A DNA stretch of 64,000 bases from an uncultured virus (IMG/VR IMGVR_UViG_3300027687_000007) (Duplodnaviria; Heunggongvirae; Uroviricota; Caudoviricetes; Crassvirales), in the IMG/VR virus record IMGVR_UViG_3300027687_000007. One strand, written 5' to 3'. Both the position numbers and the translations under genes were made by a program. The notes below the pieces were generated by a model. It was not told where the DNA came from. It was given only the letters and a program-made list of their open reading frames with translations, and ran no database searches. Shown here one piece after another: positions 8,692 to 60,448 of this stretch (position 1 is the first letter of the stretch; each line of letters opens with the position of its first letter).

Positions 8692-9375
8692 TTATTCTTT
8701 TACGCAATCATTAACAGTTTCTCCAGTTCCGCTGGGTGATTTTTTAGTACCTACTTTTTTATAGCCATCCCAACATTTTGAGTTTTTAGAATTAGCTCCT
8801 TTAAAATTTAATGGACTTTTGTTTACACCCCTGATTGAGTCTGTGCTTTTCACTCGCTGCAAATTAGCTTTATCGTAAGCGCTCATTTTCATTTTAGAAT
8901 CACCACTTAAAGAGTCTATCAAAGCATTATTTCTTCTAATTGTTGAGTTAGCTAACATAGCTTTTTTCTGAGCTTCACTATTAACTCTACTTATAACATC
9001 TCTTTGTGATTCTCCATCACTATTGCTAGCGCTTGGATGATCGTCTACCTCTGTACCTTCCGCGGCTACTTGATTAGCTGGTGAACCACCACCAAGTATA
9101 TCGTATTTCATCTTGTAAGGTGAGCCACATTTCAACTTATCTAAAGGACTTCCATCGTCAGGTGTTGAAACTATTTTTTTACCTTTTTCAGATATAACAT
9201 CACCTTTTACGTAATAACCGTTTTCTCTTCTTCTAGATTCCTCGTCCATGATATCATCTAACTTAGGTATGTTAAGATTTTTTGTACCAACCAAGCTATC
9301 AACAAATTTCTTTGCTTCACGTCCTTCGGATCTAGCGAAGTCTTGGTATTTTTCCATTGCGGTTTCTTTACTCAT
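8692..9375 (-). CDS. SP-motif family modular protein with C-terminal CWDGY module
   Basis: likely start MSKETAM; SPLDK, SPYKM, SPANQ, SPLNF; KCWDGYKKVGTKK...VNDCVKE. Confidence 0.7.
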   Translation of the reverse strand: MSKETAMEKYQDFARSEGREAKKFVDSLVGTKNLNIPKLDDIMDEESRRRENGYYVKGDVISEKGKKIVSTPDDGSPLDKLKCGSPYKMKYDILGGGSPANQVAAEGTEVDDHPSASNSDGESQRDVISRVNSEAQKKAMLANSTIRRNNALIDSLSGDSKMKMSAYDKANLQRVKSTDSIRGVNKSPLNFKGANSKNSKCWDGYKKVGTKKSPSGTGETVNDCVKE

Positions 9376-12300: not shown

Positions 12301-15300
12301 TGCCTGCCATGTCAATTCCAACTTGGAAATCAGCTCCTTTCAACCCATCTAATCCTGTTAGTTTACCAACAAATAACTCACCTATCGTTATATTAGGCTT
12401 AATAAGATTATATTCAAAAGGATTAGCTACATTGTTTTCACTGTATCTTATCCAAGACGCCATACCAGCAGGTAAAAAATCTAATTTTCCAGCTTCTAAA
12501 AGCGGAAGAACTAAATCATAATAACTTTTAGGTAATTTATCTAATAGCCCAAATTGCTTTAATGCCAAATCGTTTGCTAATTTAAGAGCTCCTTGGCCAT
12601 AAGATTTAGATATTATATTATCAAACTCGCTTTCAACTTTACCTTTTATGGCTGCGTCTAATAGTGATTTTCCAGCTTGAACATTAGGCATCATGTGCTC
12701 CTCTGTTACTTCAGAATACAAATCTACTCTTCCTGTATAAGGATCTATAGCATAAAACACAGTTGGCGCTAAAAACCTTATTGCGTGACTTTGATCTTTG
12801 CTAGATTCACTTTGCCATAGCGAAAAAGTTGAAGCAGATTCTTTATTATTTTTAATATAATCCTGTATGTTTAAAAACAATTTTTTTAACAGGTCTTGTT
12901 TCTTTTTTATTAAACCAGGGTTTTCTATTAACTTTGTTATTGCTGCTTTATTTAATTTTCTTCCTTTTCGAGTATACTTATTTCTAATTAAAGGACCTGT
13001 AGTGTCATACCCAGGAAATATTTTATCAAAAGTATCTGTATCTGTGAATGTAAAACCAAACCCACCTGTCATACCTGATCTAAATAAATAAGCTTGCTTA
13101 GGGTGTAGTTTAAAGAAACCTTCTAAATCATTTATTATTTTTATACCAGCTGGAGTTGTTAAGTCTACTGTCCTAGCGTTAACTGTTTCTCCTTTACTGT
13201 TTACTCTTTGAGTTACAATTGTTGTTAGATCAGGAAGAGGAACTACAAATACTCCTTTCTTAAAGTCTCTTTCTACTTTTATGCCTTCAGATCTTTTTAC
13301 TTGAGCTTTTTGCTTAGCACCTTCTGATTCAGTTGTTGAACCCTCTTGCACCTTAGCATCTATAGCTAGTTCTATTGCGCTTAAAGTTTGTAGTCTAGCT
13401 ATTAGTTCTAAAAGACCTTTAGATGCATTAGCTGATGTTCCTCTAGAATCTTTAATATTACCTTTAGGATCTAAACCAAAAACAGAATAAAAATAAGTTA
13501 AGTTTAATTTACTAGGATCTAGCTTGTATTGGAAATTATTATTTATTTTAGGTCCTTGAATAAAAAATGCATCAATAATTGTTTGAGCTAGTCTTCTACC
13601 TTCACCACCTATTTTTTTAGGTTTGAACTTTCCTTCAACAGTTTGTAACGGCGCGTTTCCTTTTATTTGCTTTAATAAAGCTAATAAAGTTGGTCCATTA
13701 GACTTTATCCACATTTGAACAGGTGTAACTTCACCTTTTCTTAAATTGTCGTTTGGTTCTAATATACGTGAAACTGGTATACCTAATTGATCTGCTAATT
13801 GTTGAGCTGCGATTTTAGAAAAAGGCTTTAAATCTTTTAAAGTCATTTTATCTAAATCTATCTTACCTGATTCAATTTGTTCTTTAACAAAATCAATTAT
13901 AGGGTTTGCGTTAGCAAGCTTTGTTACTTTAAAAGGATCTATAGTAACTTGTTCAGAGGCTTCTACATTTACTGGATCTGTCATTTCAACTGTTCCAGCT
14001 GATGAATCATTTAATTCATTAGTGTTAAATATAATGTTACCAAGCGCTTTAGCTCTTTCATATATTTTATCTTTTCTATCACCTAGTCTTCGTATGTAAG
14101 TTGTTACAGCGAAATCAGTATTATAACCTTCCCCTTCTTCAAATAACGGCGTGGTTTTACCACTCCACTTAGCAACTTCTCCACCAATAATAAGTTCTAT
14201 TATAGCTTTTTTTACATCGTTTTCATCTATGCCTTTTTCACCTCTTCTTTGGTAACCTATTATTGGTTTTATAACTCCAAAATTTGCTTCAACAAAAGCT
14301 TCAGCCGCTGGGTATTTATCTTTTGCAGCTCCTTGTCTAATCATTAACACTAGATCTTTATTGGTGAACAAACCTTTTCTCCACTCAGATAAAAAATTAG
14401 CTCCTTCAGGTGATATTGATTCTGATTTTTTAGAACTTGTAAGTAAAACCTCATCTAAGCCTACGCTACCGTCATCCAATTGACCTTCAATATCTCCTTG
14501 CCAAACATCACTATTTATTATATCAGTTATAGACTGCTCTGTTAAAGTTTGATTTTTATATCCTTCAGCTACTTGTCTCAATAACTCTACTACACCTTTA
14601 GCTCCTTTAAAGTCATAATCAAAATCTTTACCAACAGCTTCAGATGTTGCTTTATTAAATCCAATACCTAAAGTTGACCAAAAACCTTGCTCTTTACCTT
14701 TTTCAAAATTAATTCTATCTAATTCTTCTAAGAAAACAGTTAACACTTCGTCAAAACCTTGGCCCTCGGTTTTACGTGCTATTCTAATATATGCATCATA
14801 ATCAAACTCAGCAAGATAAGTTAATATGGTCCCAGCTAAAGATTTAAAAGCCTCTGGATTAGTACCTAAAGCTTCTGTAAAAATAACATGACCCGTTATT
14901 TCATGTAAACCTACTCCACCATTATTATTTAATATAGCGTTTTCAATAGTAACTACAGAGTCGTAAACTGGTTTACCTGTTTTTACATTAATAGATATAA
15001 AATTAATACCATTTACAGTACCATCTTTTAATCCGGCTTTAAAATCTTCTATTGCTTTTCTACCTGCTTCTTCTTTACTTATAGGATCTATTTTAGAACC
15101 TCTAAACTGTATATTTGGATCTGCTATTCTAGCATTAACCATGTCTGTGAAAGCTGCTAAAGCATCTGCATTAGTATCTAAGATGCTATAATTTACATCT
15201 ATTCCTTTTCCACGTAAAAGAGATATCATTGCAAAATCATTTTCTGCATTGCCTCTTATAGTATCTTCAGTGTATAGCTGTTCAGCTATATTAAGTAGTT

Positions 15301-21941: not shown

Positions 21942-24900
21942 TTACGTAGGTTCGTTTATTGAAAAAACGTAATTAGAAGGCGCAGGATTTATAGGAGTTG
22001 CTGTTCCGCTTCCTGCTGTTTGAGTCCAACTCCATGCTGAAGCACCACTATACACTAAGCAATTACCTATGCAATCTCCAGTAGCTAGCCCTGTTAATAG
22101 TCCTGGTAAAACAAACGTGTTGCCTATAGTTCCAATAGCTACATCTTGAATATTTGTAAAAGGACCTGACCAAGCGCCTGTACAATATTGATCATAAGCA
22201 TTACCACTTAGACCTAGTAACTGAGACCTACTTTGTCCCTGAGCGTTAAGACCATTTGTAGGTACAATGCTTATATTAGAACCTCCACCTTGTGAAGCTA
22301 GCATATTATCCCAGTTAGGAAAATCTCCAGAATTTTGTGATCCACCTTGCCACACGTACCATCCAGTTTGACCATTGCCAAAAGGATACGCATAACCGTT
22401 TTCAGGACATAAAAACACTAAAGTGAATTTAGCCTCAAAAGGATCTATAGGTATGTTAGCGTTGCAGCTTCTAGTAAACCCTGTTAACTTCCACTGTTGT
22501 ATTAAACAAACTTTAGCTCCAGTGTTTATTATAGCAGAACAAGAAACAGAAGCACCTGGATCTCCTAAAGTCATGTTTACAGTGTATATATCAGAAGGCA
22601 TACTAGAATCTTCATAACCTTTGTTTAATAATGTTATTTCTCCTTTAGCAGCAAGTCCAGTACCGTTTTTAGTAGCAACACCGCTGTTTCCAAACTCAAA
22701 ATAATCAACTAATTCATTTTGAGAATTAAATTGATCACCCATCGTAAAGGTTAAATCTTTCCAAGCATTTGCATTACCTTGAGGCGCTAAGTCTGTAATA
22801 TCAAATCCAGCTCCGTTAACTCCGTATATAGTAGCTATTATTTCAGTGGTTGTATTACCTGGATAATATGGACCCATAGGGCAATTATCCCAAACCGGAT
22901 CTTCGTATACAGATATACTGTCTCCATCGCTAACAGCTACTTGTTGATTAACCTCTAACGTTGGAGTTGGTCTCCATTGTATTTTAGCATTTGCAGGTAA
23001 CGTAACCGCTTGACTAACTACGATACTTCCAGGAGTACCACTGCTTATAGATACTATATAAGTGCCTTCCGGAACAGTTCCAACAGAGTCTACATCACGT
23101 ATTAAATAACCTACAGTACTACCTAGCGGGGTAAAGGTTAAAGGAATTGTTGTTGCGTTGCTTACGCCGGTTGTTTGTGGTTGTATAAACTCAGGTGCCC
23201 AAGGTACATCATTAGGTGTATAACCATTTCCGCTTACAACTAAGTTAGCTGGATATCCAGGCCCATCAACATTGTCTCCAATATCTATATCATCTACGTT
23301 ACCTACAACGTTATAAACGTTTATAATATTAGAAGGTGTAGGAAATCCTAAGGCATTCATTGTTACTGGTTGATAATAATAAAAATGAGGAGAAACGTTT
23401 TCTAAGTTTAGTTCTTTTTCAAAAGAAGACGTTAAACCATTTACAGTAGCTGAAAACAAGCATGTGAAACTAAATCTTTCTGGTTCAGTTCCAAACCATA
23501 TATGATTAACAAAACCAGTACTTATTTTTAAATTATATAAATTACTACCAGATCCTGTTTCTTCAAAGCTAAATACTGGTTGAATTACATTGTTGTCATC
23601 TGTATAAGCGGTTTGTACATTTGTTCCAAAACCATCTGTTATTGAATCTAAAGTTAACGGCGAAGCTATAACAGTACCAAAGTTAGTTACTAGTCCAAAA
23701 GGAGTAGTTGTTATGTTTGGCCATTCACTAGTCACAGGGTCTTGTCTTAAGCTTTCTAAAAAATTATTTAAATTAAAAGGAGAAACTCCTCCAGCTGCTT
23801 CGCCACCGGTGTTTTCGTTTAGTATAATATTATTTACGTCTTCTATAACACCTGTTGTAGATGATTCCCAAAATATATCTAATAAACTGTTTACTGGTTC
23901 TGTTTCATAAACCGCTAGATATTGTATACCTGGCTTTGTTTCGCTTGTTATATCTATTCTATCACCTGCGTTTACGGCTACTTGTTCATTTATAATTAAA
24001 GTACCAGGTGTTGTAAAGTCAATAGATTCACCAGAAGAAACTGGAGATATATTATTAAGTATAACGTTTGGTTCGCCTGCTACTGAAGGATTAATTATTT
24101 CTAAAACAACAGTACCTTCTGGTACACCTGCTCCAGAAACTATTTGGCCAACAGACATCAAGCCGGTTCCAGCAAAAAACAAACCAGCTACATTACTAGA
24201 TTCTGATGTGTTTACTGTTACCGCAAGAGTTGGCGGATTATAACCAGCTCCTGAAACAACAACTGTGTCTGGAAAATTTGGACCAGTAACTGTCATGCCT
24301 ACTTCAATGGAACCAACAGCACCTACTTCACCGTATAACTGTAAAGTATTAGTAGTGTTGCTTACTGCTATAAAAGCGCTAACAGACGTATAATTAATAT
24401 TAGCTAATTGACCTATTTTTGAAGCTGTGCTAATTCTAGCTACATAAGGATTTGATTCTAGCGTATAAAATTGCGGAAAAAGATTTGGCTCAGGTGGAGT
24501 TAATGGATCGTAATCAAACAAATCATTTACCGTAGAAATAGTTATAGCTATATCGTTTGATCTACCAGGATAATATTGTAAATTACTTTGACCCACGTTA
24601 TCATTCGCTGTTGTTATAGATATAACAGAGTTTTCAACCCTACCGTATAATTTTACGGAACTTCTAAACTGATTTTGTGTTGGACCCACTTCAGTTAAAT
24701 CTCTAGGTACTTTATTAATGTTATCACTTATTAATACTATATGAGAAGTAACTCCAACCTCTAAGGTTATGTCATTAGGATAAGAAGCCATTATACCAGG
24801 CAGGTAGACATTATAGTACTCTTGCTCTGTTTGTTTTACTACAATTTTGTAAGAATACCAACCTAAAGGATTATAAGATAAACTCGTAGCGTCACCATTA

Positions 24901-27227
24901 TAAACACCAGGTTCGAAAGTTTCAAAATTTCTAACAGTAGCTATTTCATTGTTAAAAATTAATTTTATAGAATCTCCAGGCCAAGTGTCTGGATCAACAT
25001 TAATGTCATTGTATGGTGAATATATAGTAGAACCTTTAAAAGTGTTACTACCTATTGTTATTAACTCCTTATTATTTGAAAGTATAACACCAGATTGTCT
25101 TCCGTACCTATCCGAAAGCACAACACCAACTTGGTAATTTCTGTTTGTTTTTACGCTTGAGTTTGGGTATTCTATTTTGCTAGTACTGTTTTGAGTATCA
25201 CCTCCTGGTTCTAAAATAACTAATTGTAAGTTTACTAGTATTCCTATAGTAGGAGTGTCTAATGTTATAGTGTTTCCATTTATGTTAGTTATTAAAGTAC
25301 CAATAGCTACTCCATCAGAAACAACCACCATGCCTACAAAAATATCTCCTTTTGGGTTAGTTATATTTATAACTGTAGATCCAATTGGAAAACTACCACT
25401 TACCGCAGCTGTTCCTCCGTTTAAATCAAAGTCTGACTTAGGTGATATAGCTACGTTATAGTCTATGTATTCAGGTGCAGTATGTTTGTTTTGATAGTTT
25501 CCATATATAACTCTATTACCTGAAATTTCTTGAGCTAGAGCTCTAACAGGTGTTTTGTCGTAAACTCTTATTAAATCTTTTTCCGGTAAAGTTTTAAACG
25601 GTTTTTTAGATTGGTAATTGTAAACGTGGTAATTAGGTTCCCCTATTGTTAGTTTAACGCCAGCTATTAAAGTTTGTACCGAGCTAAGTTCAATCCTACC
25701 TGAAGTGCTAGGTAAGACACTTGGATTGTCTGGCGTGTAACTTACCACTGTCACGTTTGTTGTAATTCCAAAACCAGTCACATAACTACCAACTTGTATT
25801 CCACCCAGTATGCCATCAACATTTACGTTAACACTCGCGCTTGTTGTTGTTTTTACATTTGCTATACCAGAAGAATTATATAGAGTTGTAGAATCTACAG
25901 TGTCCACAACCTTAATAGGTAGTTGATCTGATTCTTTGTAAAGTATATCTATAGCAGTAACCTTTAAAGAGTTTAGCATGCTATAATTAGCGTATGGAAG
26001 TGGTATTCTTAACTTGATGTCGTCTACTTTGTTCTCAACAAAACTAACTATAGTACTTCTTAATGTCTCAGATTCATTGTTTACTTCTTTTAAATTAGGA
26101 GTATTAACGTACATAAAATAACCATCTTGCTTAGGTATAAAAGCAGCTTGAGTAAAGGTAGAAAATAAAGAATATTGACTGTCTTCAAATTTAAATCTAT
26201 ATCCAAATCTAACAAACTTATCATCTAAATAAGTTGGATCACCTGCAAATTCAGGATTATAATAAGGATTCACATTAAGTATTATAACAGTATTGCTAGG
26301 TAAGTTTTCGGTAAACGTTAGACCACTAGCAAAAGTTAACTCCCAAGTAGGTGTAGCTCCTGTATCATCATATGTTGCTGTTTCTACCAATAGACTAGGT
26401 ATAGTTTGAACTACACCAAGAGCATCAACGTATGAAACACTAGAGCCAGTGTTATACGGATTTTGTATGTTTCCGTCTAAAAGTATGTCTCCAATAAAGT
26501 TTTTTACAAATATACTTGTGGCGCCAGTTGTTACAGACGCGTTCAAAGATCCATTACCACCGTTGGGTAAATTTTTACTTGTAACATCCTTCATGGTTGT
26601 TTCGTATTGAGGAGTTGCTGAAGTTGTTAATTTGCTTTCAGCATAAAGCTCTATACATTTGTAGGGATTATATTTTGCAACAGATATTTGATCTTCGTTA
26701 GTGTAATGCGTAGGTGTTGCGAGTCTATTTGGATTTGCTAAACTAATATTTATGCACCTAGGTTGGTTTCTATTATCTGTCCAAAACAATAAGTTTTCAA
26801 CTATGCTTAAACCATGCACTGGACGTGTTTGAGAAAAATTAAGAAAACCACCTTGAACCAATATAGTCAATGGATTTCCGGTTGTGTCTTGTGAATTAAA
26901 AGCAAGTATATAGTTTTTAGCCGAAGGACTGTAGCTGTTAGGTTTTTGACCTTGAACATCACTCCAGTTTGTAAAAAACAAATAAGCAATACCAGAAGCT
27001 TCATCTTCAATAGAACCAATACAATAAAGATTAGCGGATCCAGTTAAAACTTGAGCATCTGCAACCTTAGAATTTCCTAAAACATTTTCTAAAGAACCAA
27101 CATTAGCTCCTTCTGATTTGTTTACCTGCACGTTTATAGCATCCCTGTATTCGTTATTAGGAAGTATGCGAGCGTCCAAGTCTTTATTCATCTTGGACTT
27201 TAAGAAAGTATTTTTAGACTTGTTCAT
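21942..27227 (-). CDS. tail muzzle/stabilisation protein, N-terminal-type part with inserted beta modules
   Basis: KMNKDLDARILP..EYRDAINV, LFWTDNRNQPRCIN, FVRFGYRFKF, GNRVIYGNY, LSDRYGRQS. Confidence 0.7.
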   Translation of the reverse strand: MNKSKNTFLKSKMNKDLDARILPNNEYRDAINVQVNKSEGANVGSLENVLGNSKVADAQVLTGSANLYCIGSIEDEASGIAYLFFTNWSDVQGQKPNSYSPSAKNYILAFNSQDTTGNPLTILVQGGFLNFSQTRPVHGLSIVENLLFWTDNRNQPRCINISLANPNRLATPTHYTNEDQISVAKYNPYKCIELYAESKLTTSATPQYETTMKDVTSKNLPNGGNGSLNASVTTGATSIFVKNFIGDILLDGNIQNPYNTGSSVSYVDALGVVQTIPSLLVETATYDDTGATPTWELTFASGLTFTENLPSNTVIILNVNPYYNPEFAGDPTYLDDKFVRFGYRFKFEDSQYSLFSTFTQAAFIPKQDGYFMYVNTPNLKEVNNESETLRSTIVSFVENKVDDIKLRIPLPYANYSMLNSLKVTAIDILYKESDQLPIKVVDTVDSTTLYNSSGIANVKTTTSASVNVNVDGILGGIQVGSYVTGFGITTNVTVVSYTPDNPSVLPSTSGRIELSSVQTLIAGVKLTIGEPNYHVYNYQSKKPFKTLPEKDLIRVYDKTPVRALAQEISGNRVIYGNYQNKHTAPEYIDYNVAISPKSDFDLNGGTAAVSGSFPIGSTVINITNPKGDIFVGMVVVSDGVAIGTLITNINGNTITLDTPTIGILVNLQLVILEPGGDTQNSTSKIEYPNSSVKTNRNYQVGVVLSDRYGRQSGVILSNNKELITIGSNTFKGSTIYSPYNDINVDPDTWPGDSIKLIFNNEIATVRNFETFEPGVYNGDATSLSYNPLGWYSYKIVVKQTEQEYYNVYLPGIMASYPNDITLEVGVTSHIVLISDNINKVPRDLTEVGPTQNQFRSSVKLYGRVENSVISITTANDNVGQSNLQYYPGRSNDIAITISTVNDLFDYDPLTPPEPNLFPQFYTLESNPYVARISTASKIGQLANINYTSVSAFIAVSNTTNTLQLYGEVGAVGSIEVGMTVTGPNFPDTVVVSGAGYNPPTLAVTVNTSESSNVAGLFFAGTGLMSVGQIVSGAGVPEGTVVLEIINPSVAGEPNVILNNISPVSSGESIDFTTPGTLIINEQVAVNAGDRIDITSETKPGIQYLAVYETEPVNSLLDIFWESSTTGVIEDVNNIILNENTGGEAAGGVSPFNLNNFLESLRQDPVTSEWPNITTTPFGLVTNFGTVIASPLTLDSITDGFGTNVQTAYTDDNNVIQPVFSFEETGSGSNLYNLKISTGFVNHIWFGTEPERFSFTCLFSATVNGLTSSFEKELNLENVSPHFYYYQPVTMNALGFPTPSNIINVYNVVGNVDDIDIGDNVDGPGYPANLVVSGNGYTPNDVPWAPEFIQPQTTGVSNATTIPLTFTPLGSTVGYLIRDVDSVGTVPEGTYIVSISSGTPGSIVVSQAVTLPANAKIQWRPTPTLEVNQQVAVSDGDSISVYEDPVWDNCPMGPYYPGNTTTEIIATIYGVNGAGFDITDLAPQGNANAWKDLTFTMGDQFNSQNELVDYFEFGNSGVATKNGTGLAAKGEITLLNKGYEDSSMPSDIYTVNMTLGDPGASVSCSAIINTGAKVCLIQQWKLTGFTRSCNANIPIDPFEAKFTLVFLCPENGYAYPFGNGQTGWYVWQGGSQNSGDFPNWDNMLASQGGGSNISIVPTNGLNAQGQSRSQLLGLSGNAYDQYCTGAWSGPFTNIQDVAIGTIGNTFVLPGLLTGLATGDCIGNCLVYSGASAWSWTQTAGSGTATPINPAPSNYVFSINEPT

Positions 27228-44227: not shown

Positions 44228-44671
44228 TTATCTATTTTTATCTTTATTTACATTATATATAGCTTTTGTCATTACTTTATCTGTATAACTACTACCAGCT
44301 ATTAATTTGTTTCTTCTTTTACTTATTGGTAGATCTTCTTCACCTAGCATTATTCTGTATATTCTACTTATTAATTGCTTGCATTTAAAAGATACTTCGT
44401 ATATATTAAACATTTGTGTAGATCTATTTCTTTTTCTCCACACAACTATCCAACCTTCTTTAAGTAATCTATTCCATCTTCTGTTATCCCAACTGTAAGA
44501 ATAACTACCCATTTTAAAATCTTTTTTATTAAAAAAACCTATACAATCTAAATAAATTAATAGTTCTAAATCAGCATCGTTTAAGTCATTGTTTTTACAT
44601 GCCCACTTACGTATTATTCTGTAATGTTTTATTAAGTTTAAGTCCTTAATGTCACGTGCACTTATTCTCAT
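44228..44671 (-). CDS. hypothetical protein, possible winged-helix regulator
   Basis: LNDADLELLIYL...RLLKEGWIVVW...Y. Confidence 0.5.
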   Translation of the reverse strand: MRISARDIKDLNLIKHYRIIRKWACKNNDLNDADLELLIYLDCIGFFNKKDFKMGSYSYSWDNRRWNRLLKEGWIVVWRKRNRSTQMFNIYEVSFKCKQLISRIYRIMLGEEDLPISKRRNKLIAGSSYTDKVMTKAIYNVNKDKNR

Positions 44672-44928
44672 AAAACAACAACTACATCCTGAGCTTTAAT
44701 CACATGATACGTTTGTTTTTCTAATTCTATTTTATGACCAGCATGTCTATCAAAAAAGATCTTATCGTTCTCTTTCATTCCAACTATATCAGATCCTACC
44801 GAAACAACCGTTGCTTCTACGTATCTAATGTCTTCTCTCTGGTTTTCTGCAAGAAGTAAACCACCTTTTGTTTTAGTGGTTCCTTCTTTTGTTTTTTGTA
44901 TAATTAAATTTCTACCTATTGCTTTCAT
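44668..44928 (-). CDS. groS: co-chaperonin GroES
   Basis: KAIGRNLII, KTKGGLLL mobile loop, VVSVG, DVVVVL. Confidence 0.9.
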   Translation of the reverse strand: MKAIGRNLIIQKTKEGTTKTKGGLLLAENQREDIRYVEATVVSVGSDIVGMKENDKIFFDRHAGHKIELEKQTYHVIKAQDVVVVL

Positions 44929-46468
44929 CGATTCTTAAATTATTGATTACACAATCGGTTGACAATATCGTTGTAGCTACTGAAGCTGCGTTTTGAAGAG
45001 CACTTTTTGTAACGAGTAAAGGATCTATAATACCTGACTTAATCATATTTACCATTTTTCCTGTAACCACGTTTAGACCTTTACCTTTCATAATAGGTAG
45101 ATCATACTCTACAATGCCCGCGTTTTCTAATATTGTTCTAAAAGGTGATTTAATTGCTTCTAATAATACTTGCTCACCTATTGATTTAGATTTAATATGT
45201 TGCGCGGCATTTAATAAAGCGATTCCACCTCCTGATACTATACCTTCTTTAACAGCAGCTTTCGTAGCGCAAATAGCGTCTTCAACCCTATCTGTTTTTT
45301 CTTTTAATTCAATATCAGAATTAGCACCTACTTTTACTATGGCTATTCTAGCCGCGAGCATTGCTAATCTTTTTTCTAATTTTATTACCTCATAAGCAGG
45401 TAAATCTTTAGATAGTTTTTCTTTTATATCTTCTATAATTAAATTAACATCTTTTGATGTTTCTTTTATTTGAATAACTGTATCTTGGTGAGTTGTTACG
45501 CTTTTTAAACAAGATCCTAAATGTTCTATTTGAATCATATCTAAGTCATCGCCTAAATCTTCATTTATAATAGTAGCACCTGTTAACAAAGAAAGATCAT
45601 CAAGTATTTGTTTTTTATTAACACCATATGTTGGTGCGTTTATAACATTTACCTTGATATTGCCTTTCTTTTTATTCATTGCTAAAGCTGATAAAACACC
45701 TTGTTCTAAGTCGCCTATAATAAGCAAAGGTTTGTTGTTTTTTATTACATACTCTAGCACTGATTGTATTTGTCTAATTGTATCAACTGGTGATTCAATT
45801 AACAGCACTAGTGGATTTTCTAGTTCTGCTGTTTTTGATTGTTGATTAGTTACGAAATGAGAATTAGTAATTCCTTTATCATATTGAACTCCATCAACTA
45901 CTTCAAACACTGTTTTACCTGAAGCAGATGTCTCCATCATGACAACACCCGTGTTATCTACAGATCTAAAAGCGTCTGCAATGATACAACCAAGTTCTTT
46001 GTCGTTGTTGGTAGATATAGTGGCAATTTGATTTATCATTTGCCCTTTAGCTTCTATTGATGTAGATTCTAAATATTTTATAACTTTTTTAACTGCAGAA
46101 TTAATACCATCTTTTAATTCTCTTGAATTTGTTTTATTAGAAACTTTATAAGCTTCTTCTAATATAGCATGAGCTAATACGGTTGCGGTAGTTGTACCGT
46201 CACCTGCTTCTCTCACCGTTTTTCTTGCTGCTTCTTTTAATAGAGTAGCACCCATGTTTTCAACTGGGTCTAGTAATACTATTGAGTCTGCAACTGTAAC
46301 TCCATCTTTTGTTATAACTGGTCTTCCGCTAGCATCTTCTAGCATTACACATTTACCGCTAGCTCCTAATGTGGAGCTAACAGCAGTTGTGAGTTTAGTT
46401 ATACCTTTAAATACATTTTTCCTAGCTTCGTCACCGAAGTTAAGATTTTTGACTATTGAGTCTGACAT
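44912..46468 (-). CDS. groL: chaperonin GroEL
   Basis: ITKDGVTVA, GDGTTTATVLA, GIVSGGG, GIIDP; no GGM tail. Confidence 0.97.
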   Translation of the reverse strand: MSDSIVKNLNFGDEARKNVFKGITKLTTAVSSTLGASGKCVMLEDASGRPVITKDGVTVADSIVLLDPVENMGATLLKEAARKTVREAGDGTTTATVLAHAILEEAYKVSNKTNSRELKDGINSAVKKVIKYLESTSIEAKGQMINQIATISTNNDKELGCIIADAFRSVDNTGVVMMETSASGKTVFEVVDGVQYDKGITNSHFVTNQQSKTAELENPLVLLIESPVDTIRQIQSVLEYVIKNNKPLLIIGDLEQGVLSALAMNKKKGNIKVNVINAPTYGVNKKQILDDLSLLTGATIINEDLGDDLDMIQIEHLGSCLKSVTTHQDTVIQIKETSKDVNLIIEDIKEKLSKDLPAYEVIKLEKRLAMLAARIAIVKVGANSDIELKEKTDRVEDAICATKAAVKEGIVSGGGIALLNAAQHIKSKSIGEQVLLEAIKSPFRTILENAGIVEYDLPIMKGKGLNVVTGKMVNMIKSGIIDPLLVTKSALQNAASVATTILSTDCVINNLRIDESNR

Positions 46469-46879: not shown

Positions 46880-49800
46880 CTATTTTTCTAACTGCTCTAC
46901 TCTTGTTTTTAAATCCTCTATAATTTCTTGTTGTTCTTTTATTGCATTTATCAATACAGCTGTTAACTCTGAGTAAGCTACGGATTTAAGCCCATCATCT
47001 TCATTTTCTAATATAAGTTCTGGTAAAACAGCTTCAACTTCTTGAGCTATAACACCAACTTTAGTAGGTCCTGTATTAAAATCAGTTCTGTTATAATAAA
47101 CACCTCTCATGGCTTGAACCTTTCCAATACAGTCGTCAATTTCAACTATATTTTCTTTTATTCTTATATCAGAATTTTGAGTTAACGTACCATTAATAGT
47201 CATGTTAGCAGTTGAAGGGAAGAATCTATATCTAATTGATCCTCCATCTCTCCAGTATACGTTACCACAATTCATGTCAAAGTAAGTATCTGAATTATTT
47301 GTGTGAAATCTAAAGTGATTTGCTGTTGCATTATTACCTAGAAAAAAATCACCTACTCCAGTAGAGCTTCTTACTATCGAAACTCCATTTACATGAAATT
47401 TTGCTAATGGAGTAACTCCTATACCACAGTCTTGATTTATGATAGTAGCGTAATTGTTAGTAGACCATCTATAAGCACCGCCTGTACTAAACTGCAATGT
47501 ATCGGCAGCAGGATTAAACATACCAGTGTTTGTGTCACTATTAAAAGAGTGTGCTGGTTGGTATGCGCTTCCACCTGTAGATCTCACATATCCCGCTACA
47601 ATATTACCAACCGCTTCAAGGTTTCCTGAAGCTCTTACATTTCCACTTATAAGTAATTCTGTACCATTAGCATCCATCCTTACATCGTAATCAGAAGTAC
47701 CTGTGTTGCTTGTATGGAAATCAATATATCTACCCACTTCTGTTACAGCTCCTACAATTGCTACTCCGCCGTTATGCCAAGCTCCACTCACTGGAACCTT
47801 CAAGCTAAGTGTACCAGTGCTTGTAATTGTTCCTCCTAATATAGGCGATGTTGTAGCTATAGATGTTACGGCACTTGACTTGAACCCTGCATCATTATCA
47901 AAAATACTTAAAGGTAGATCTACAAATTGAGTTTTTAAAGAAGAACCATCACTAGAAGAATCAGATCCGTAAATCATATAATCATCTCCGTCAGGAGTAG
48001 ATCCACCTGGAGCAGCCATAACAATAGAATCAGAACCTGCGTAATCTACATTTAATGTTACAGATCCAGATGATCCTCCTCCTGTCAATCCACTACCCGC
48101 AGATACGTTAGTTATATCTCCAACACTAGTTGTATAACCAGCACCGTTTGCTAATTGATTGTTGTTTGTAATATAATTAGCATTAGTTGCGCCTGTATAA
48201 CCCAAGTTAGCTAATGTCATTGTTCTAGTAGCAAATGAAGTTATAACACCTTGCGTTAAATTCACACTGCTTAAAACCGCTCCACCTGCACTGATACCAA
48301 TATTAGTTGATGTTCCTATAGTAGTATTGCCTGAGCTAGTTACATAACCTGCACCATTAGTAAGTTGATTGTTATTTGTTACATTAGTTGCACCATTCGC
48401 TACATTTAATAGTGTTCTTGCTGCTGCTGCTGTATAAGATCTTCCGTAAGTATCTGTACCGTTTGTTCCAGTAAATAGACCCATTCCTGAACTAGCTCCA
48501 GTTGTAGAAAATGTCCCTGAGCCATTAAAGTACGATGCAAATAAATAACCACTTGAGTTTCTTTGTGCTATCGTGTTGATGCTTTCGCTTGCTGATACTG
48601 TACCTGTAACGGTACCTGTATTTGTTGTATACCCAGCGCCATTGGAAAGTTGATTATTATTAGTAATGTAATTTGCATTTGTAGCACCTGTAAATCCTAA
48701 ACCACCAAGAGTAGTTGTAGAAGATACTAGTCCTGTAACATGACCAAAAGTATCTAATGTTACATCTTGTATGTACGTATTACCTGAGTTATTTACAGTA
48801 GCTTGACTTGACGTGTCTGCGTGAGATATTGTAACTGTACCACTTGTACCTCCACCTGTAATTCCTGTTCCTGCGGTTACACCTGTAATATCACCTACAT
48901 TTCCAGTGTATCCAGCACCGTTTGTTATTGCGTTATTATTTAAACTTATATTTGCTGAACCATTAAAGGACACGCCTGCAATTGTTCTAGCTGTTTGAAG
49001 TACTGTTGCTGAGTAAGCGTTACCCGATATTGTAGTCTGTACAATATTTGGTGCAGAGTTAGTTATTGTAACTGTACCACTAGTGCCTCCACCTGAAATA
49101 CCTGAACCTGCTGTTACTCCTGTTATGTCTCCTGAGTTAGAAGTCCATCCTGCATTATTGCTAAAAATACTAAGTGGAATAGATGATATTAATTGTCTAT
49201 TGTCAACCCCACCATTTTCCGCTATTAAATAGTCAGTAGCTATTAACGTACCTCCAACTGCTAATTCACCTAAGTCTAGAGTAAGTGTTACTGCGCCTGA
49301 ACTACCACCACCACTTAAGCCTGTGCCTGCGGTTACCGCGGTTATATCACCTACGTTAGTAGTATAACCAGAATCATTAGTCCATTGAGATATGTTGTTA
49401 CTTGCAAGACCTAAAGTTACAGTACCACTTGTGCCGCCTCCAGTTAATTTGTTTCCTGCAGTAACGCCTGTAATGTCTCCAACATTTGAAGTATAGCCTT
49501 GATTTTTTACAAACGCAGTTGTAGCTAAATAGGTAGAACTATCTGCTGTTGACCTTGTTACAGATATAGGTGTTGTTGTAAATGTTTTTGCTCCACCAAT
49601 ACTTTGTGTACCTATAGTATATACTCCATTTGTAACTGATCCAGCATTACCTGATACAGTTGTTTGAACAATGTTGGGTGATGTGTTTGTTATAGTTAAT
49701 GTTCCTCCACTAGAAGTAGAAGTAAGTTCTGATTGTATACCAGTACCTTGAGCAAAAGTTATTGTTTCACCATTTGTAACAGTGCTTGTTTCAGTGCCAT

Positions 49801-51802
49801 TACCTTCTTTAATAATAAAAGATGACATGCTCCCTACAGCTGTATTATCTACTTTTGTCCACGTTGTGTTCCCAAATACAGCCCAATCACCTACTGCCCA
49901 ATCCGTAATACCATTTAAGTTTGTACTACCTGCAACCGATACTATATAATAATCTCCTGATGTACCTACGTTGCTTGCAAGTGTCGGTGTGTTTGTACTA
50001 GCGTTCCATGTACCTTCAAATTGCAACACGCCAGTTAAAGCCGTATTGATAGCTGTTTGTATCTGTGCTCCAGTTGCTAAATTAGCAGAAGACAAATTTA
50101 CTGTACCTGTTACTGGTGTTAATGTTTTTGCTGTTGTTCCGCTAGAAGTTAAAGTAGAACTATTTCCAGTTGCAACAGTATTTACTTGACCGGTTGCTCC
50201 TGTAGATACAGCGGTTACTCTACCATATGCATCTAAAGTTATTTGATCAATTTTAATACTATTAGATGTAGATCCATAAAATCCAGCCCCTGCACCAGCA
50301 GTTGCTAAACTTAAAGTTCCTGTGGAAGTAATTGTCCCACCAGTTAATCCAGTGCCAGTTGCAACTGATGTTACTCCCGCACTAGAACTTGTACCTGCAC
50401 CTATTAAGCTTCTAACCTCAGCTGCTGATATACCTGAATTTAAGCTTGGTGTTGAACCATTAGATAAAATTGCAGGTGTACCTGTGTCATTGACAACCCC
50501 TAGGTTAGTCCTTGCCCCAGACGCAGTACTTGATCCAGTGCCCCCATTTGCTACAGATAAGTCTGTACCTGACCAGTTTCCGTTGTTAATACTAACTGAT
50601 CCACCTAAAGTAATAGTGCCTGTAGAAGTTATTGTTCCTCCAGTTAATGTTATTCCATTTACACTGCCACTTGTTGCGACAGATGTTACTCCTGCACTAC
50701 TTGATGTTCCTGCACCAATTAAACTTCTAACTTCTGCTGCACTAATACCACTATTTAAACTTGGCGTTGAACCATTGCTTAATATAGCTGGAACACCAGT
50801 ATCACCGGTTACTGTACAATTTAATGTTACTGAACCTGAAGCTCCACCACCACTCATGCCTGTACCTGCAACCACTGCTGTTATATCTCCAACATTTGAT
50901 GTAAAACCAGAATCATTGTTCATGATGCTTAGAGGTAAATCCACAAACTGGCCGCTTACTGATTCTCCACTTCCCGAAGAATCGGCGCCGTAAATAAACA
51001 TGTCATCAGCATCAGGAACGTTTCCAGTTGGAGCAGCCATAACAATAGAATCAGCACCTGTGTAATCTACAGATACAGTTCCTGAACCGGTTATAGTTCC
51101 GCCTGTTAATCCTGATCCTGTAGCCACAGAAGTTACTCCTGCAGATGAACTAGTTCCTGCTCCAATTAAAGATCTTACTTCAGCCGCTGATATACCTGAG
51201 TTTAATGAAGGCGTACTGCCATTACTTAACATTGCTGGCGTACCAGTATCATTAACAACTCCTAAGTTAGTTCTAGCAGCAGATGCTGAGCTTGCACCTG
51301 TTCCTCCGTTAACAACTGATAAATCTGTGCCTGACCAATCACTATTGCTGATAGCAAGAGTTCCACCCAATACTATAGTTCCTGAAGAGGTAATAGTGCC
51401 TCCAGTTAGTGTTAGTCCGTTTTTTGTGCCTGATGTAGCTACAGAAGTTACACCTGAAGACGTAACGTATCTACCATCTAAATCTACTGTTAAAGTACTT
51501 AAACCATTTCTAGTAGCACTTAAAATTCCATTAGTAGTATTAAAACCTAGGCCAGTTAAATAATTATTACTTCCTGAATCGTCCGCCCAAGAAGCTGTAA
51601 TAGTCCCACCGTCTTGTTGAGTAGCTGTTAATGTTTTTGTATTAGTTCCTGATACAGCTAAACCTACTATAGAGTTGTCATACGAAGTATTCCACTGAGT
51701 AGATGTACCGCCAGGCGCCGTCATTATACCACCAGAGGTTATAATTCCTCCGGTGGTTAACGAGCCTTTTACATCTTGATCTGCATAATATATTATAGCC
51801 AT
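46880..51802 (-). CDS. long tail fibre with C-terminal intramolecular chaperone (peptidase S74-like)
   Basis: Gly/Thr/Ser repeats; SDIRIKENI...GVIAQEVE...LINAIKEQQ. Confidence 0.9.
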   Translation of the reverse strand: MAIIYYADQDVKGSLTTGGIITSGGIMTAPGGTSTQWNTSYDNSIVGLAVSGTNTKTLTATQQDGGTITASWADDSGSNNYLTGLGFNTTNGILSATRNGLSTLTVDLDGRYVTSSGVTSVATSGTKNGLTLTGGTITSSGTIVLGGTLAISNSDWSGTDLSVVNGGTGASSASAARTNLGVVNDTGTPAMLSNGSTPSLNSGISAAEVRSLIGAGTSSSAGVTSVATGSGLTGGTITGSGTVSVDYTGADSIVMAAPTGNVPDADDMFIYGADSSGSGESVSGQFVDLPLSIMNNDSGFTSNVGDITAVVAGTGMSGGGASGSVTLNCTVTGDTGVPAILSNGSTPSLNSGISAAEVRSLIGAGTSSSAGVTSVATSGSVNGITLTGGTITSTGTITLGGSVSINNGNWSGTDLSVANGGTGSSTASGARTNLGVVNDTGTPAILSNGSTPSLNSGISAAEVRSLIGAGTSSSAGVTSVATGTGLTGGTITSTGTLSLATAGAGAGFYGSTSNSIKIDQITLDAYGRVTAVSTGATGQVNTVATGNSSTLTSSGTTAKTLTPVTGTVNLSSANLATGAQIQTAINTALTGVLQFEGTWNASTNTPTLASNVGTSGDYYIVSVAGSTNLNGITDWAVGDWAVFGNTTWTKVDNTAVGSMSSFIIKEGNGTETSTVTNGETITFAQGTGIQSELTSTSSGGTLTITNTSPNIVQTTVSGNAGSVTNGVYTIGTQSIGGAKTFTTTPISVTRSTADSSTYLATTAFVKNQGYTSNVGDITGVTAGNKLTGGGTSGTVTLGLASNNISQWTNDSGYTTNVGDITAVTAGTGLSGGGSSGAVTLTLDLGELAVGGTLIATDYLIAENGGVDNRQLISSIPLSIFSNNAGWTSNSGDITGVTAGSGISGGGTSGTVTITNSAPNIVQTTISGNAYSATVLQTARTIAGVSFNGSANISLNNNAITNGAGYTGNVGDITGVTAGTGITGGGTSGTVTISHADTSSQATVNNSGNTYIQDVTLDTFGHVTGLVSSTTTLGGLGFTGATNANYITNNNQLSNGAGYTTNTGTVTGTVSASESINTIAQRNSSGYLFASYFNGSGTFSTTGASSGMGLFTGTNGTDTYGRSYTAAAARTLLNVANGATNVTNNNQLTNGAGYVTSSGNTTIGTSTNIGISAGGAVLSSVNLTQGVITSFATRTMTLANLGYTGATNANYITNNNQLANGAGYTTSVGDITNVSAGSGLTGGGSSGSVTLNVDYAGSDSIVMAAPGGSTPDGDDYMIYGSDSSSDGSSLKTQFVDLPLSIFDNDAGFKSSAVTSIATTSPILGGTITSTGTLSLKVPVSGAWHNGGVAIVGAVTEVGRYIDFHTSNTGTSDYDVRMDANGTELLISGNVRASGNLEAVGNIVAGYVRSTGGSAYQPAHSFNSDTNTGMFNPAADTLQFSTGGAYRWSTNNYATIINQDCGIGVTPLAKFHVNGVSIVRSSTGVGDFFLGNNATANHFRFHTNNSDTYFDMNCGNVYWRDGGSIRYRFFPSTANMTINGTLTQNSDIRIKENIVEIDDCIGKVQAMRGVYYNRTDFNTGPTKVGVIAQEVEAVLPELILENEDDGLKSVAYSELTAVLINAIKEQQEIIEDLKTRVEQLEK
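50355..51250 (-). repeat. three copies of a ~45-aa module within the tail fibre
   Basis: DTG[TV]PA[MI]LSNGSTPSLNSGISAAEVRSLIGAGTSSSAGVTSVAT at about 51250, 50803 and 50489. Confidence 0.9.
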
Positions 51803-58767: not shown

Positions 58768-58905
58768 ATGCCTAACATTAAACTAACAAAAAGCGATTGT
58801 ACTTTTGTACACTATGTACTAAGAATGTACGCACAACAGACACCTGGAATGGACGCAGAAGATAAAGCAGAAATAAGAGATGTCGCAAATAAATTTAAAC
58901 TATGA
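58768..58905 (+). CDS. hypothetical early protein
   Basis: likely start MPNIKLTK inside track ORF 58714. Confidence 0.55.
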   Translation: MPNIKLTKSDCTFVHYVLRMYAQQTPGMDAEDKAEIRDVANKFKL

Positions 58906-59126
58906 GTAAAATGAGTGAACTAGATCAAATAGCGCAAGGCGTAGCAGATCACATGAAAGAATTAACGTATGATAGCGTTACATGGCAAATATCAGATCAA
59001 CCTGTAGACGGTGATAACTTTAACGATCTACATAGTATGGTAATGAAGAAAGCCGTAGAATATCTATATATAGATGTAGTAATTGGTGGTAAGCAAAATG
59101 TTGCAGGTCCATTACAAACAAAATAA
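58902..59126 (+). CDS. hypothetical early protein
   Basis: ORF track, ATGA overlap. Confidence 0.6.
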   Translation: MSKMSELDQIAQGVADHMKELTYDSVTWQISDQPVDGDNFNDLHSMVMKKAVEYLYIDVVIGGKQNVAGPLQTK

Positions 59127-59154
59127 TATCATAATCAGATAATATAAATGTAAC
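59112..59154 (+). promoter_or_regulatory. early promoter-like repeat 5
   Basis: full consensus match. Confidence 0.75.
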
Positions 59155-59171
59155 AAATAAAAATAAATAAT

Positions 59172-59360
59172 ATGTATTGTAGATGCGGAAGTAATGTTCA
59201 TCAAGTAAGAATTAATCTAGGTTATAAGACGTGTATGCCTTGTAGTACAACACAGACATACTCTTATGTTCCTATAATAGAACACAAAACCGGCAACACA
59301 ATACAAATTGTCAGCCAAGAAGTCAGTGCATCCGTGCACCGTGCTTGGCGACGTAAGTAG
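59172..59360 (+). CDS. C4 zinc-finger protein, DksA/TraR-finger-like
   Basis: CRCG..V...R...GYKTCMPCS. Confidence 0.6.
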   Translation: MYCRCGSNVHQVRINLGYKTCMPCSTTQTYSYVPIIEHKTGNTIQIVSQEVSASVHRAWRRK

Positions 59361-59564
59361 CTAGACGAGTAGCTTAATTAGGATTTAGGTGGGCGAATGC
59401 TGTAAAGATACCACGACAAATGGTACCTAAATTACATAAGTGAATTGCTAGTTACAAATGTGCAGCGAATAAATAACGTGTGTGATATGGAGGTACAAAG
59501 TATAGACAAATGTCGAACTCCCATCGGATGGATAACCGTAACACTAGCAAATGACTGCACACAC

Positions 59565-59642
59565 GGGGGTGACTTGGTATTGACGTGATAGAAAGCCTAT
59601 ATGGAACTATTGCGGAAGACAGTTCGAATCTGTCCACCTCCA
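59565..59642 (+). ncRNA. tmRNA-like RNA consisting only of the tRNA-like domain
   Basis: acceptor GGGGGTG/CACCTCC+A with G3:U70, stemless D region ending TTGAC, 7-bp helix, T arm GACAG-TTCGAAT-CTGTC. Confidence 0.75.
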
Positions 59643-59645
59643 CTT

Positions 59646-59718
59646 CGCGCTGTAGAGCAGTGGCCAGCTCGTCGGGCTCATAACCCGAAGGTCGTCGGTT
59701 CGAATCCGGCCAGCGCAA
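59646..59718 (+). tRNA. initiator tRNA-fMet (CAT)
   Basis: cloverleaf, C1:A72 mismatch, GGG/CCC anticodon stem around CTCATAA, TTCGAAT loop; no encoded CCA. Confidence 0.95.
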
Positions 59719-59733
59719 CTAAAAAATTAAATT

Positions 59734-60207
59734 ATGAGTACAAGAAACGTAACTATGGTAGTCCATAGATCAGAATCAGAAAAATATGTCAAAGGTTTTG
59801 CAGTTGATCCAAGCGATGTGGCTGACAAAAGCTATGTAAACATGTACTTACATCATGACGGTTACCCTGAATACCAAGGTGTTCAAATAGCTAACTGGAT
59901 AAAGTATATGCAAAATGACAAAGGTTTTACAAACTTTGGTGATGGTTCAAGAATAGCTTCACACTTGGTTAAAGACATGCATTATAACTCACAATACTTA
60001 TATCCTAGCGTAGATTTTATCGACCACAATTACACTTATATTATATGGGTAGGTAAATCTGACGTATGGGTAAGTTGTTGGAACCAACACACTAACACTT
60101 GTGTATTTGTATCAACACCTGATAAGATAATTAAAAAATATTCCCGACTAGATACCATGGAATATACAGACTGGAGTTACAAACAAAATAATATAACTAA
60201 CAGATAA
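59734..60207 (+). CDS. conserved phage protein (Y.H.DGYP motif)
   Basis: MSTR...YLHHDGYPE...YTYII. Confidence 0.7.
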   Translation: MSTRNVTMVVHRSESEKYVKGFAVDPSDVADKSYVNMYLHHDGYPEYQGVQIANWIKYMQNDKGFTNFGDGSRIASHLVKDMHYNSQYLYPSVDFIDHNYTYIIWVGKSDVWVSCWNQHTNTCVFVSTPDKIIKKYSRLDTMEYTDWSYKQNNITNR

Positions 60208-60219
60208 TATAATAAACAA
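60177..60219 (+). promoter_or_regulatory. early promoter-like repeat 6
   Basis: TTACAAACAAAATA-N10-CAGATAATATAA. Confidence 0.7.
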
Positions 60220-60226
60220 ACAAACA

Positions 60227-60448
60227 ATGCAAAAATTAAATCTTTACGACAGGCTAAAGCCTGAGTACAAAACAAGTATTGACAAACAATACAACAAAGA
60301 CAATAGAAAGTTTCAACACGAAGCTTTAATCAGAGCGCTTAGCAGCGAATATTACTTTACTGAAGTAAGATACGGCGACGCATTTGATATTATGAATTCA
60401 TGCAATCTAGATTTTCTAGGTGACGCATTTAACAAACAAGAACTATGA
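60227..60448 (+). CDS. hypothetical protein
   Basis: NLYDRLKPEYK. Confidence 0.65.
   Translation: MQKLNLYDRLKPEYKTSIDKQYNKDNRKFQHEALIRALSSEYYFTEVRYGDAFDIMNSCNLDFLGDAFNKQEL

Follow-up and report, generated by a model that had tools for sequence, protein, structure and literature searches.

A probable phage gene for a tag-less tmRNA reduced to its tRNA-like domain, with relatives in many phages

We provide evidence that the 78-nt element at 59565-59642 (+ strand) of the window, that is, the whole 64-kb stretch of DNA analysed here, is a functional phage gene for a tmRNA that consists of the tRNA-like domain only and carries no tag, and that it is a member of a large phage family of such mini-tmRNAs. 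We put the probability of this reading at roughly 0.9. The initial annotation had proposed a tmRNA tRNA-like domain without an mRNA-like domain, and this is upheld by the alignment to the Rfam tmRNA model, by covariation and by a covariance model (R1) that covers both the element and the RNA of Mycobacterium phage DS6A. As to the mode of action, our preferred reading, to which we give even odds, is that the RNA would be an alanine-charged competitor of the host tmRNA for SmpB and stalled ribosomes. The element is a further member of the DS6A-type kind of tmRNA with the tRNA-like domain (TLD) only, of which one phage case is already published. The breadth of the family is unpublished in the literature searched, which held no account of such a phage family beyond mentions of DS6A.

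All parts named in the initial annotation (stems, D region, cap, linker and T arm) are present base for base, each on the + strand. The 78 nt are counted up to the discriminator A. The acceptor stem is formed by the 5' strand GGGGGTG (59565-59571; sequence and MFE fold) and the 3' strand CACCTCC, which is followed by the discriminator (59635-59642). The G3:U70 pair is confirmed at 59567/59639, where the T at 59639 is U70 and lies opposite G3, and the discriminator A at 59642. The stemless D region ACTTGGTATTGAC (59572-59584) aligns without gaps to the D region of the tmRNA consensus and ends 3' in GAC. Helix P2/H2a pairs GTGATAG (59585-59591) with CTATTGC (59607-59613), and in the MFE fold it is capped by 15 nt, AAAGCCTATATGGAA (59592-59606), made up of an A-rich strand AAAG, a mini hairpin CC(TATAT)GG and then AA. 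This cap occupies the site of the pseudoknots and the tag frame in a full tmRNA.

The GGAA linker (59614-59617) takes positions that are paired in the Rfam tmRNA consensus structure: its GGA stands opposite the GAC of the D region, giving the G·A / A·G / C-G closure of tmRNA type. The T arm GACAG-TTCGAAT-CTGTC (59618-59634) precedes the acceptor 3' strand, and a 3-nt spacer CTT (59643-59645) follows the discriminator, the CCA being unencoded. The MFE fold of the element is exactly this structure, at -25.8 kcal/mol (z -2.96), a value equalled by one of 200 shuffles. The defining pattern has a single match within the 64-kb window and none in 100 shuffles. After element position 27 there is no stop triplet in any frame, so the loop holds no hidden tag frame.

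On 901 bases and with laxer filters, the Rfam tmRNA model (RF00023) matches the element end to end at 57.8 bits (E 6.9e-22, cut-off 47). The alignment replaces 304 central model positions with 11 nt, which leaves no space for the pseudoknots PK1-PK4, all absent from the element. An overlapping weaker match from the same Rfam clan (CL00001, which includes tRNA) was dropped in favour of the tmRNA match. Given that true tRNA-Ala genes reach 38-42 bits with the tmRNA model, the margin of the element is about 16-20 bits. Its parts follow the standard order without circular permutation, in agreement with the initial annotation: RF04321 reaches just 13.1 bits (cut-off 47), and RF02544 has no match to the element at E<=10.

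The covariance model R1 was built from IMG/VR pattern hits alone, without DS6A. It scores the window element at 84.1 bits and recovers the DS6A element (JN698994.1, 28478-28557) end to end at 57.6 bits, against 23.6-31.3 bits for true tRNA-Ala genes and 14.9-29.7 bits for the ends of full-length tmRNAs. Scores of 62.5-85.8 bits are obtained for eight of the nine genome_contigs loci (L125 was unmatched at E<=0.01), and of at least 46.2 bits for 74 of the 78 unique sequences found with a looser pattern. A better fit to a canonical tRNA was looked for and none was found: ARAGORN is silent on the element, the clan match is weaker, and R1 sets the element well apart from tRNA-Ala. As a candidate in its own right, canonical tRNA-Ala was rejected on the unpaired D region, the 15-nt loop and the R1 separation.

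Standard tools pass over such genes. The default-filter (gathering) Rfam scan of the whole 64-kb window missed the element, and ARAGORN called the tRNA-Met only. Over the family, ARAGORN overlooked the element in 58 of 60 loci; in the two loci L005 and L064, it placed an unusual tmRNA or tRNA-Val on or next to the element. The DS6A element lies between gp33 and gp34, where the annotation table of the record has no RNA feature. The family thus represents an annotation gap, as regards ARAGORN, default Rfam on the window and the DS6A record.

The family was collected with a strict pattern (GGGG, A8, GG, T, GAC, 20-50 nt, TTCGA.T, CTCCA) in which only tmRNA-type positions are fixed. In IMG/VR it is matched by 116 viral contigs with 82 unique sequences, and those of L095 and L101 are identical to the window element. 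The matches are 63-90 nt long, mostly 75-80, and their size is near-constant over 42 clades. Among 185,579 prokaryotic species genomes (one genome each) the same pattern has nine matches, eight of them on contigs of metagenome bins and one on a Terracoccus scaffold; in the four genomes searched among these nine, a full-length tmRNA is also present every time. The mini-tmRNA element is phage-specific.

When the length of the D-loop is left free, at least 120 matches are obtained, and among those listed the strict pattern fits only 28 of 120, which puts the size of the family at several times 116. Viral contigs supply at least 156 unique sequences, namely the 82 of the strict pattern and 74 more confirmed by R1. 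The pattern fixed G3 and much of the tRNA-like domain, so that the constancy of these positions is uninformative and the set is biased to tmRNA-like sequences. A blastn search of the 78-nt element against 50,697 phage records gave no match, and the surrounding region matched tRNA-Met only. R1 had no match in the five nearest named phage records (MW202828.1, a Flavobacterium elemo phage, Cellulophaga phi19:3 and phi38:1, and Tenacibaculum Gundel_1), and positive controls were found by the same route. The gene is therefore accessory, and dispensable in this phage group.

To describe conservation we used two alignments. Alignment A1 holds the window element and 80 other unique sequences (L095, which equals the window, and the 90-nt outlier L109 were excluded). 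Standard pairs make up 95.2% of its cells, against 63.0% when shuffled and 43-54% when the partners are slid. Both sides change at 15 of the 19 pairs, and the four unvarying pairs are the ones fixed by the pattern. Every pair covaries in helix P2 (7/7) and in the T arm (5/5, with 100% of cells paired), where pairing is unconstrained by the pattern, and acceptor pairs 5-7 covary across the family. Alignment A2 represents the window's own clade (14 sequences: the window and 13 related viral contigs): 60 of 78 positions are invariant in the element against 5 of 418 in the flanks. Close relatives carry a compensatory double change in the T arm, GAGAG/CTCTC against GACAG/CTGTC in the window. Covariation thus supports the proposed fold at both levels, through both-side changes in all helices (A1) and the T-arm change within the clade (A2).

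Conservation extends to positions outside the pattern. The GGA opposite GAC, a feature of the SmpB side of the element, is conserved base by base in 80, 72 and 80 of 81 members, and A28, A29 and A30 in 71, 67 and 53. The best conserved parts of the element are the D-loop, the GAC/GGA closure and the T loop. Nearly all members share an inner layout of a P2 of 7-8 bp, an A-rich 5' strand and a hairpin of 2-5 bp, usually CC...GG; in a few short forms (63-68 nt) P2 is capped by a plain loop. Stop triplets occur at the P2/loop junction in 71 of 81 members, a count that is uncorrected for base composition. Judged from these alignments, the mini-tmRNA family is real and its structure is under purifying selection. 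The conserved inner loop is unremarked in the passages of the literature consulted.

These data bear directly on the view that the element is a functionless relic, be it what remains of a decayed full tmRNA, part of an attachment site, an artefact of assembly or an aberrant tRNA-Ala. Such an origin would agree with the use of tmRNA genes as common integration sites and the occurrence of their fragments in prophages, as described in PMC9004378, and also with the silence of ARAGORN and default Rfam on the element. Nonetheless, both gene ends are present and mutually paired, every helix covaries, and invariance is concentrated inside the element and not in its flanks. The near-constant size over 42 clades and the recurrence of the same form in independent assemblies and runs likewise speak against a relic, and a tRNA-Ala would be expected to have the D stem and 7-nt anticodon loop that are missing here (R1 84.1 bits against 23.6-31.3). 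That an assembly deletion had shortened a full tmRNA, a concern raised in the initial annotation, is contradicted by 13 related viral contigs and by contigs from independent public runs, all of which have the same short form. We consider the relic very improbable; covariation, conservation, constant size and independent assemblies bring it close to refuted.

Contigs from three of four RNA libraries cover the element: 59195-59684 in X16 (4 differences), 59390-59644 in X18 (0 differences) and 59510-59593 together with 59564-59694 in X9 (0 differences). The X19 contig ends at 59570, and parts of 58900-60300 are uncovered in the four runs. Such libraries can contain DNA, and their contigs confirm the short form from independent data, without thereby demonstrating transcription. 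A depth peak at 59652-59745 in these data consists of tRNA-Met-like contigs that continue into unlike sequence.

The window encodes a terminase, portal, tail fibre, GroEL/GroES, ribonucleotide reductase, thymidylate synthase, DNA ligase, sigma factor and ERF recombinase. A related large terminase occurs in 87 phage records, all of them of an uncultured podovirus (63% identity) or of phages of Flavobacterium, Cellulophaga, Tenacibaculum and Maribacter, in agreement with the earlier suggestion of a flavobacterial phage. Public runs with this stretch are mostly marine or aquatic (20 of the 24 listed, 11 studies). From the terminase relatives and these runs, a host in Flavobacteriia is likely. A tmRNA was present in 53 of 61 Bacteroidia genomes searched, of which 30 were read. 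T precedes GAC in 24 of these 30 against 25 of 81 family members, and the window element has this T; CCA is unencoded in 26 of the 30 genes, six of which end in CTT like the window. In 65 queries with window ORFs (20 PHROGs, 45 Pfam) no SmpB or other rescue-factor family was found, the large structural ORFs having been searched with PHROGs only or lying outside the SmpB scan. As no phage SmpB is present in the ORFs scanned, the partner must be a host protein.

The gene and its leader open a series of rightward genes, among them those for the ligase, sigma factor and ERF. The leader (59361-59564, + strand) is non-coding and contains blocks shared by relatives in alignment A2 (14 sequences), for example the 15 nt directly 5' of the gene (59550-59564); it has no Rfam match at E<=10. 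A sigma-70 promoter scan returned five sites against 4.4 expected, Bacteroidota and phage promoters being outside its model, and the terminator scan gave none on the + strand. The T-arm-bearing insert found upstream in relatives has no Rfam match, no ARAGORN call and a fold z of +1.2, no better than shuffles.

As noted earlier, the element lies 3 nt upstream of a gene for an initiator tRNA: the CTT spacer is followed by tRNA-Met(CAT) at 59646-59719 (+ strand), called by ARAGORN and scored at 65.4 bits by the Rfam tRNA model. It has a C1/A72 mismatch (a non-standard 1-72 pair) and a GGG/CCC anticodon stem, which we take to be the marks of an initiator. Going by the 3-nt spacing, the tRNA-Met is probably co-transcribed with the mini-tmRNA. 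In relatives the downstream tRNA is a tRNA-Gln (L025, 3 nt), a tRNA-Met (L015, 6 nt) or absent. Of 60 family loci, 12 have a tRNA no more than 1.5 kb away, and in 6 a same-strand tRNA lies at most 7 nt from the element, an arrangement that would fit release by tRNA-processing enzymes. Among 1,252 ORFs (50 aa or longer) from 81 loci, no conserved partner gene emerged: the commonest neighbour family, an NlpC/P60 hydrolase, occurs in 4 of 42 element clades, and no translation-related neighbour family was found among the ORFs of these loci.

The neighbourhood also bears on a possible role in which the RNA would decoy, or block the triggering of, host factors of defence or RNA decay that recognise tmRNA-like RNA. 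Candidate targets would be RNase R, nucleases that cut tRNA, and defence proteins containing an SmpB-like domain. CoCoNuT restriction systems carry SmpB-like OB folds for which tmRNA binding is predicted (PMC11090510), and a phage anti-CRISPR uses RNase R-binding fragments of tRNA and tmRNA (PMC11662646). The patchy presence of the gene among related phages would be in keeping with this role, as counter-defence genes are often patchy. However, no defence or anti-defence gene is linked to the element in the window or in the 81 loci, and the alanine marks are explained no better in this way than by a charged competitor. Altogether we regard such a decoy as quite improbable.

An indication of how the RNA might work comes from these alanine marks. 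In a re-scan with positions 70 and 73 left free, the same 116 stretches were retrieved, with T70 and A73 in all 116. The G3-C70 variant, which is stabler and one step away, is found in 0 of the 116 matches (82 unique), and a variant other than A73 in none of the 116 with that position free. That both positions are invariant although left free argues for selection on alanine charging. At least 101 of the 116 have C as the first trailer base (C74), and 29 of them encode the CCA.

We propose the following sequence of events. The gene would be transcribed in the rightward early/DNA-metabolism block, jointly with the initiator tRNA gene 3 nt downstream, and the RNA would be excised by host tRNA-processing enzymes: an RNase P cut at the 5' end of the tRNA-Met would leave a 3-nt trailer, which would be trimmed before CCA is added by the host enzyme. 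Host AlaRS would charge the RNA with alanine by way of G3·U70 and A73, and host SmpB would bind at the elbow of D-loop and T-loop. According to PMC8363625, SmpB contacts the elbow of D-loop and variable loop, and aminoacylation allows delivery by EF-Tu. The complex of Ala-mini-tmRNA, SmpB and EF-Tu would then rival the full host tmRNA, both in binding SmpB and in occupying the empty A site where ribosomes have stalled. Having no resume codon, tag frame or stop codon, it would add at most one alanine to the nascent chain and no degradation tag, and the outcome would be that host trans-translation and tagging are blunted during infection.

We prefer a charged competitor to a pure SmpB sponge because no G3-C70 or non-A73 variant is seen in the 116 matches. 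A sponge would titrate SmpB away from the host tmRNA, with neither charging nor ribosome entry needed, and is in line with the charging-independent inhibition reported by Hudson et al. (PMC4131195) and with the D-loop, GAC/GGA closure and T loop being the best conserved parts. On the other hand, a sponge needs no G3·U70 or A73, yet G3-C70 occurs in 0 of 116 while acceptor pairs 5-7 vary freely, and the trailer base C74 is also kept. The conserved alanine marks thus argue against any decoy that needs no charging, and we hold the sponge to be unlikely. Two considerations weigh against the charged competitor itself: the inhibition reported from E. coli, which did not need charging, fits a plain sponge equally well, and the benefit to the phage of blocking ribosome rescue is not evident.

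The main rival to the charged competitor starts from the same marks. Here the RNA would serve productive rescue without a tag: Ala-mini-tmRNA with SmpB would take over the nascent chain and leave as peptidyl-RNA, to be resolved by the host peptidyl-tRNA hydrolase or an ArfB-type factor. Instead of inhibition, the phage would obtain ribosomes that can be reused and proteins without a tag. The invariance of G3·U70 and A73 in 116 of 116 matches when positions 70 and 73 are free implies that charging, hence ribosome entry, matters. Mitochondrial tmRNAs without a CDS are conserved together with SmpB and have been suggested to aid on incomplete mRNAs (PMC11915505), and the presence of full tmRNAs in phages (PMC9004378) makes a phage interest in boosting rescue plausible. 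Against this, the release route for a stop-less peptidyl tRNA-like domain is hypothetical. GCN in the loop followed by an in-frame stop is found in just 11 of 81 members and not in the window element, and the published test, as described in PMC4131195 and PMC11915505, reports inhibition of tmRNA and not rescue. We therefore give tag-free rescue well below even odds.

Broadening the view, mini-tmRNAs could perhaps be a widespread alanine-charged 'anti-tagging' device of phages, leaving proteins with a single-alanine ending and the ribosome freed by drop-off; we offer this tentatively, and think it more doubtful than not. The RNA would enter ribosomes stalled on cleaved or truncated messages, such as those left by host RNA-cutting defences or by phage mRNA turnover. 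If this were true, it would add a third, RNA-only outcome of trans-translation and phage proteins would be shielded from ClpXP-type proteolysis. In that case the A-rich strand with its mini hairpin would serve ribosome passage or release as a functional module, rather than being a deletion scar. Bacteria rescue ribosomes mainly by trans-translation, which is also a drug target (PMC8363625). A compact natural RNA that works against or around it would be a ready probe of SmpB, AlaRS, EF-Tu and the stalled ribosome. If directed against rescue, the mini-tmRNA would also add a new tool of phage take-over.

Among known systems, tRNA-Ala has G3·U70, A73 and the T arm in common with the window element, which differs from it in having no D stem, no anticodon arm or 7-nt loop and no Ala anticodon. 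The likeness to canonical SsrA (RF00023) goes further and comprises the G3·U70 and A73 acceptor, the stemless D loop, the GAC/GGA closure and the T arm; unlike SsrA, the element is without pseudoknots, resume codon, tag reading frame and stop codon. Laboratory tmRNA fragments (the tRNA-like domain plus a capped helix 2) have the same parts as the window element but are engineered. In these fragments, helix 2 is capped by a simple loop. The window element, by contrast, was cut down in nature and has retained a conserved A-rich loop and mini hairpin, which are dispensable for the constructs. A truncated tmRNA has been solved on the ribosome with SmpB and EF-Tu in a pre-accommodation state (PMC8363625), so an RNA of the domain only can reach the A site.

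Mitochondrial tmRNAs (jakobids and oomycetes; RF02544) have likewise kept the tRNA-like part and have no tag frame. They are, however, circularly permuted and organellar, whereas the window RNA has the standard order and is viral. According to PMC11915505, the CDS-less mitochondrial tmRNAs are thought to act with SmpB and make up a 'permuted, no CDS' form; we read its Tables 2 and 3 to mean that the 72 sequences counted there as permuted without a CDS are the mitochondrial ones.

The closest counterpart is the RNA of DS6A, listed by Hudson, Lau and Williams in 2014 as 'Mycobacterium phage DS6A (TLD only)' (PMC4131195) and held in the tmRNA Website as tmID 11587, a 'standard, no CDS' tmRNA in the terms of PMC11915505. 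Inhibition of tmRNA by an RNA of DS6A type in E. coli, with charging not required (PMC4131195), is attributed to Mao et al. 2009 by PMC4131195 and PMC11915505. Like the window element, the DS6A RNA is phage-borne, non-permuted and about 80 nt long, with an intact alanine-type tRNA-like domain and no tag frame, and in both P2 is followed by an A-rich strand and then a small hairpin (of CCGC...GCGG type in DS6A). Both are recognised by one covariance model, R1, apart from tRNA-Ala. They differ in host, which is actinobacterial for DS6A and probably a marine member of the Flavobacteriia for the window phage. Their sequences are only distantly alike (blastn of the window element finds no phage record), and only the window copy is fused to the gene of an initiator tRNA and shows the T of Bacteroidia type in front of GAC. 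According to PMC11915505, the 2025 tmRNA database counts 79 phage tmRNAs and, in all life, 9 'standard, no CDS' forms of 97,179 sequences. Against these nine and the one published phage case of DS6A, the family described here comprises at least 156 unique viral sequences.

In long and short family members alike, the tRNA-like frame of the mini-tmRNA is constant despite variation of the helix 2 arm, which ranges from a bare stem capped by a tetraloop up to an extension of 30-40 nt. The short forms measure 59-64 nt (L395, L019, L016 and L402) and the long forms 85-92 nt (L109, L310, L316, L318, L347 and L348). Three 68-nt matches on viral contigs (L306, L345 and L389) have both the stemless D region of tmRNA type (GG..T.GAC) and a normal anticodon arm that contains TGC in its 7-nt loop. 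ARAGORN calls all three tRNA-Ala(UGC), placing the anticodon at position 30, and the covariance model of the family (R1) scores them at 30.0-31.6 bits, between the mini-tmRNA and tRNA-Ala classes. They look like D-arm-less tRNA-Ala, or like a form that links tRNA-Ala to the tRNA-like domain of tmRNA.

Upstream of the gene, the leader of the window and those of its relatives have short blocks in common, while all of the sequence between these blocks differs. Such blocks are found at 59358-59382, at 59433-59451 and, immediately 5' of the mini-tmRNA gene, at 59550-59564 (15 nt, AATGACTGCACACAC); besides the latter, TAGCTAGACGAGTAGCTTAATTAGG and ACATAAGTGAATTGCTAG are shared. These blocks may be promoter, processing or additional RNA signals. 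One contig from a public RNA library (X9) fuses 59457 to 59564, leaving out 106 nt, and the same part of the leader is skipped in relatives L002 and L049.

In the alignment of the window's own clade (A2), six relatives (L053, L025, L037, L038, L041 and L072) carry approximately 95-100 additional nt between two CTAG words, for example at L053:1658-1756 (minus strand), corresponding to 59447-59459 in the window. The two ends of this insert pair (AACTAG/CTAGTT), and within it lies the T-arm-like GAGGGTTCGATTCCCTC. The insert has no Rfam matches at E<=1 and no ARAGORN call, and it does not fold better than shuffled sequences (z +1.2). At 59451/59452 of the window GCTAG directly abuts TTACAAAT, a junction resembling either a clean deletion or an insertion site that lacks its insert.

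Elsewhere on the minus strand, the phage encodes its own adjacent GroES (Cpn10, 86 aa) and GroEL (518 aa, PHROG chaperonin) at 44668-46468, a pair also encoded side by side in MW202828.1, the uncultured relative closest to it. Three very large ORFs, of 2,944 aa (9368-18202), 1,761 aa (21942-27227) and 1,640 aa (46880-51802, with a tail-fibre C-terminus), are located on this strand as well.

Mini-tmRNA and tRNA-Ala cannot be separated by Rfam alone. Its tmRNA model gives true bacterial tRNA-Ala genes (L250, L251 and L252) 38-42 bits, which falls short of the gathering score by just 5-9 bits. One real mini-tmRNA, that of Terracoccus (L249), reaches 41.4 bits and is thus also below the cut-off. 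The model fits these tRNA-Ala genes 'end to end' by deleting the core. Mini-tmRNAs are an annotation gap. ARAGORN overlooks them in 58 of 60 family loci, and at L005 and L064 the tmRNA calls that it yields are long and implausible and include invented tag peptides. The annotation table of the mycobacteriophage DS6A record holds no RNA feature at JN698994.1 28478-28557 (L282), the site of the published 'TLD only' tmRNA.
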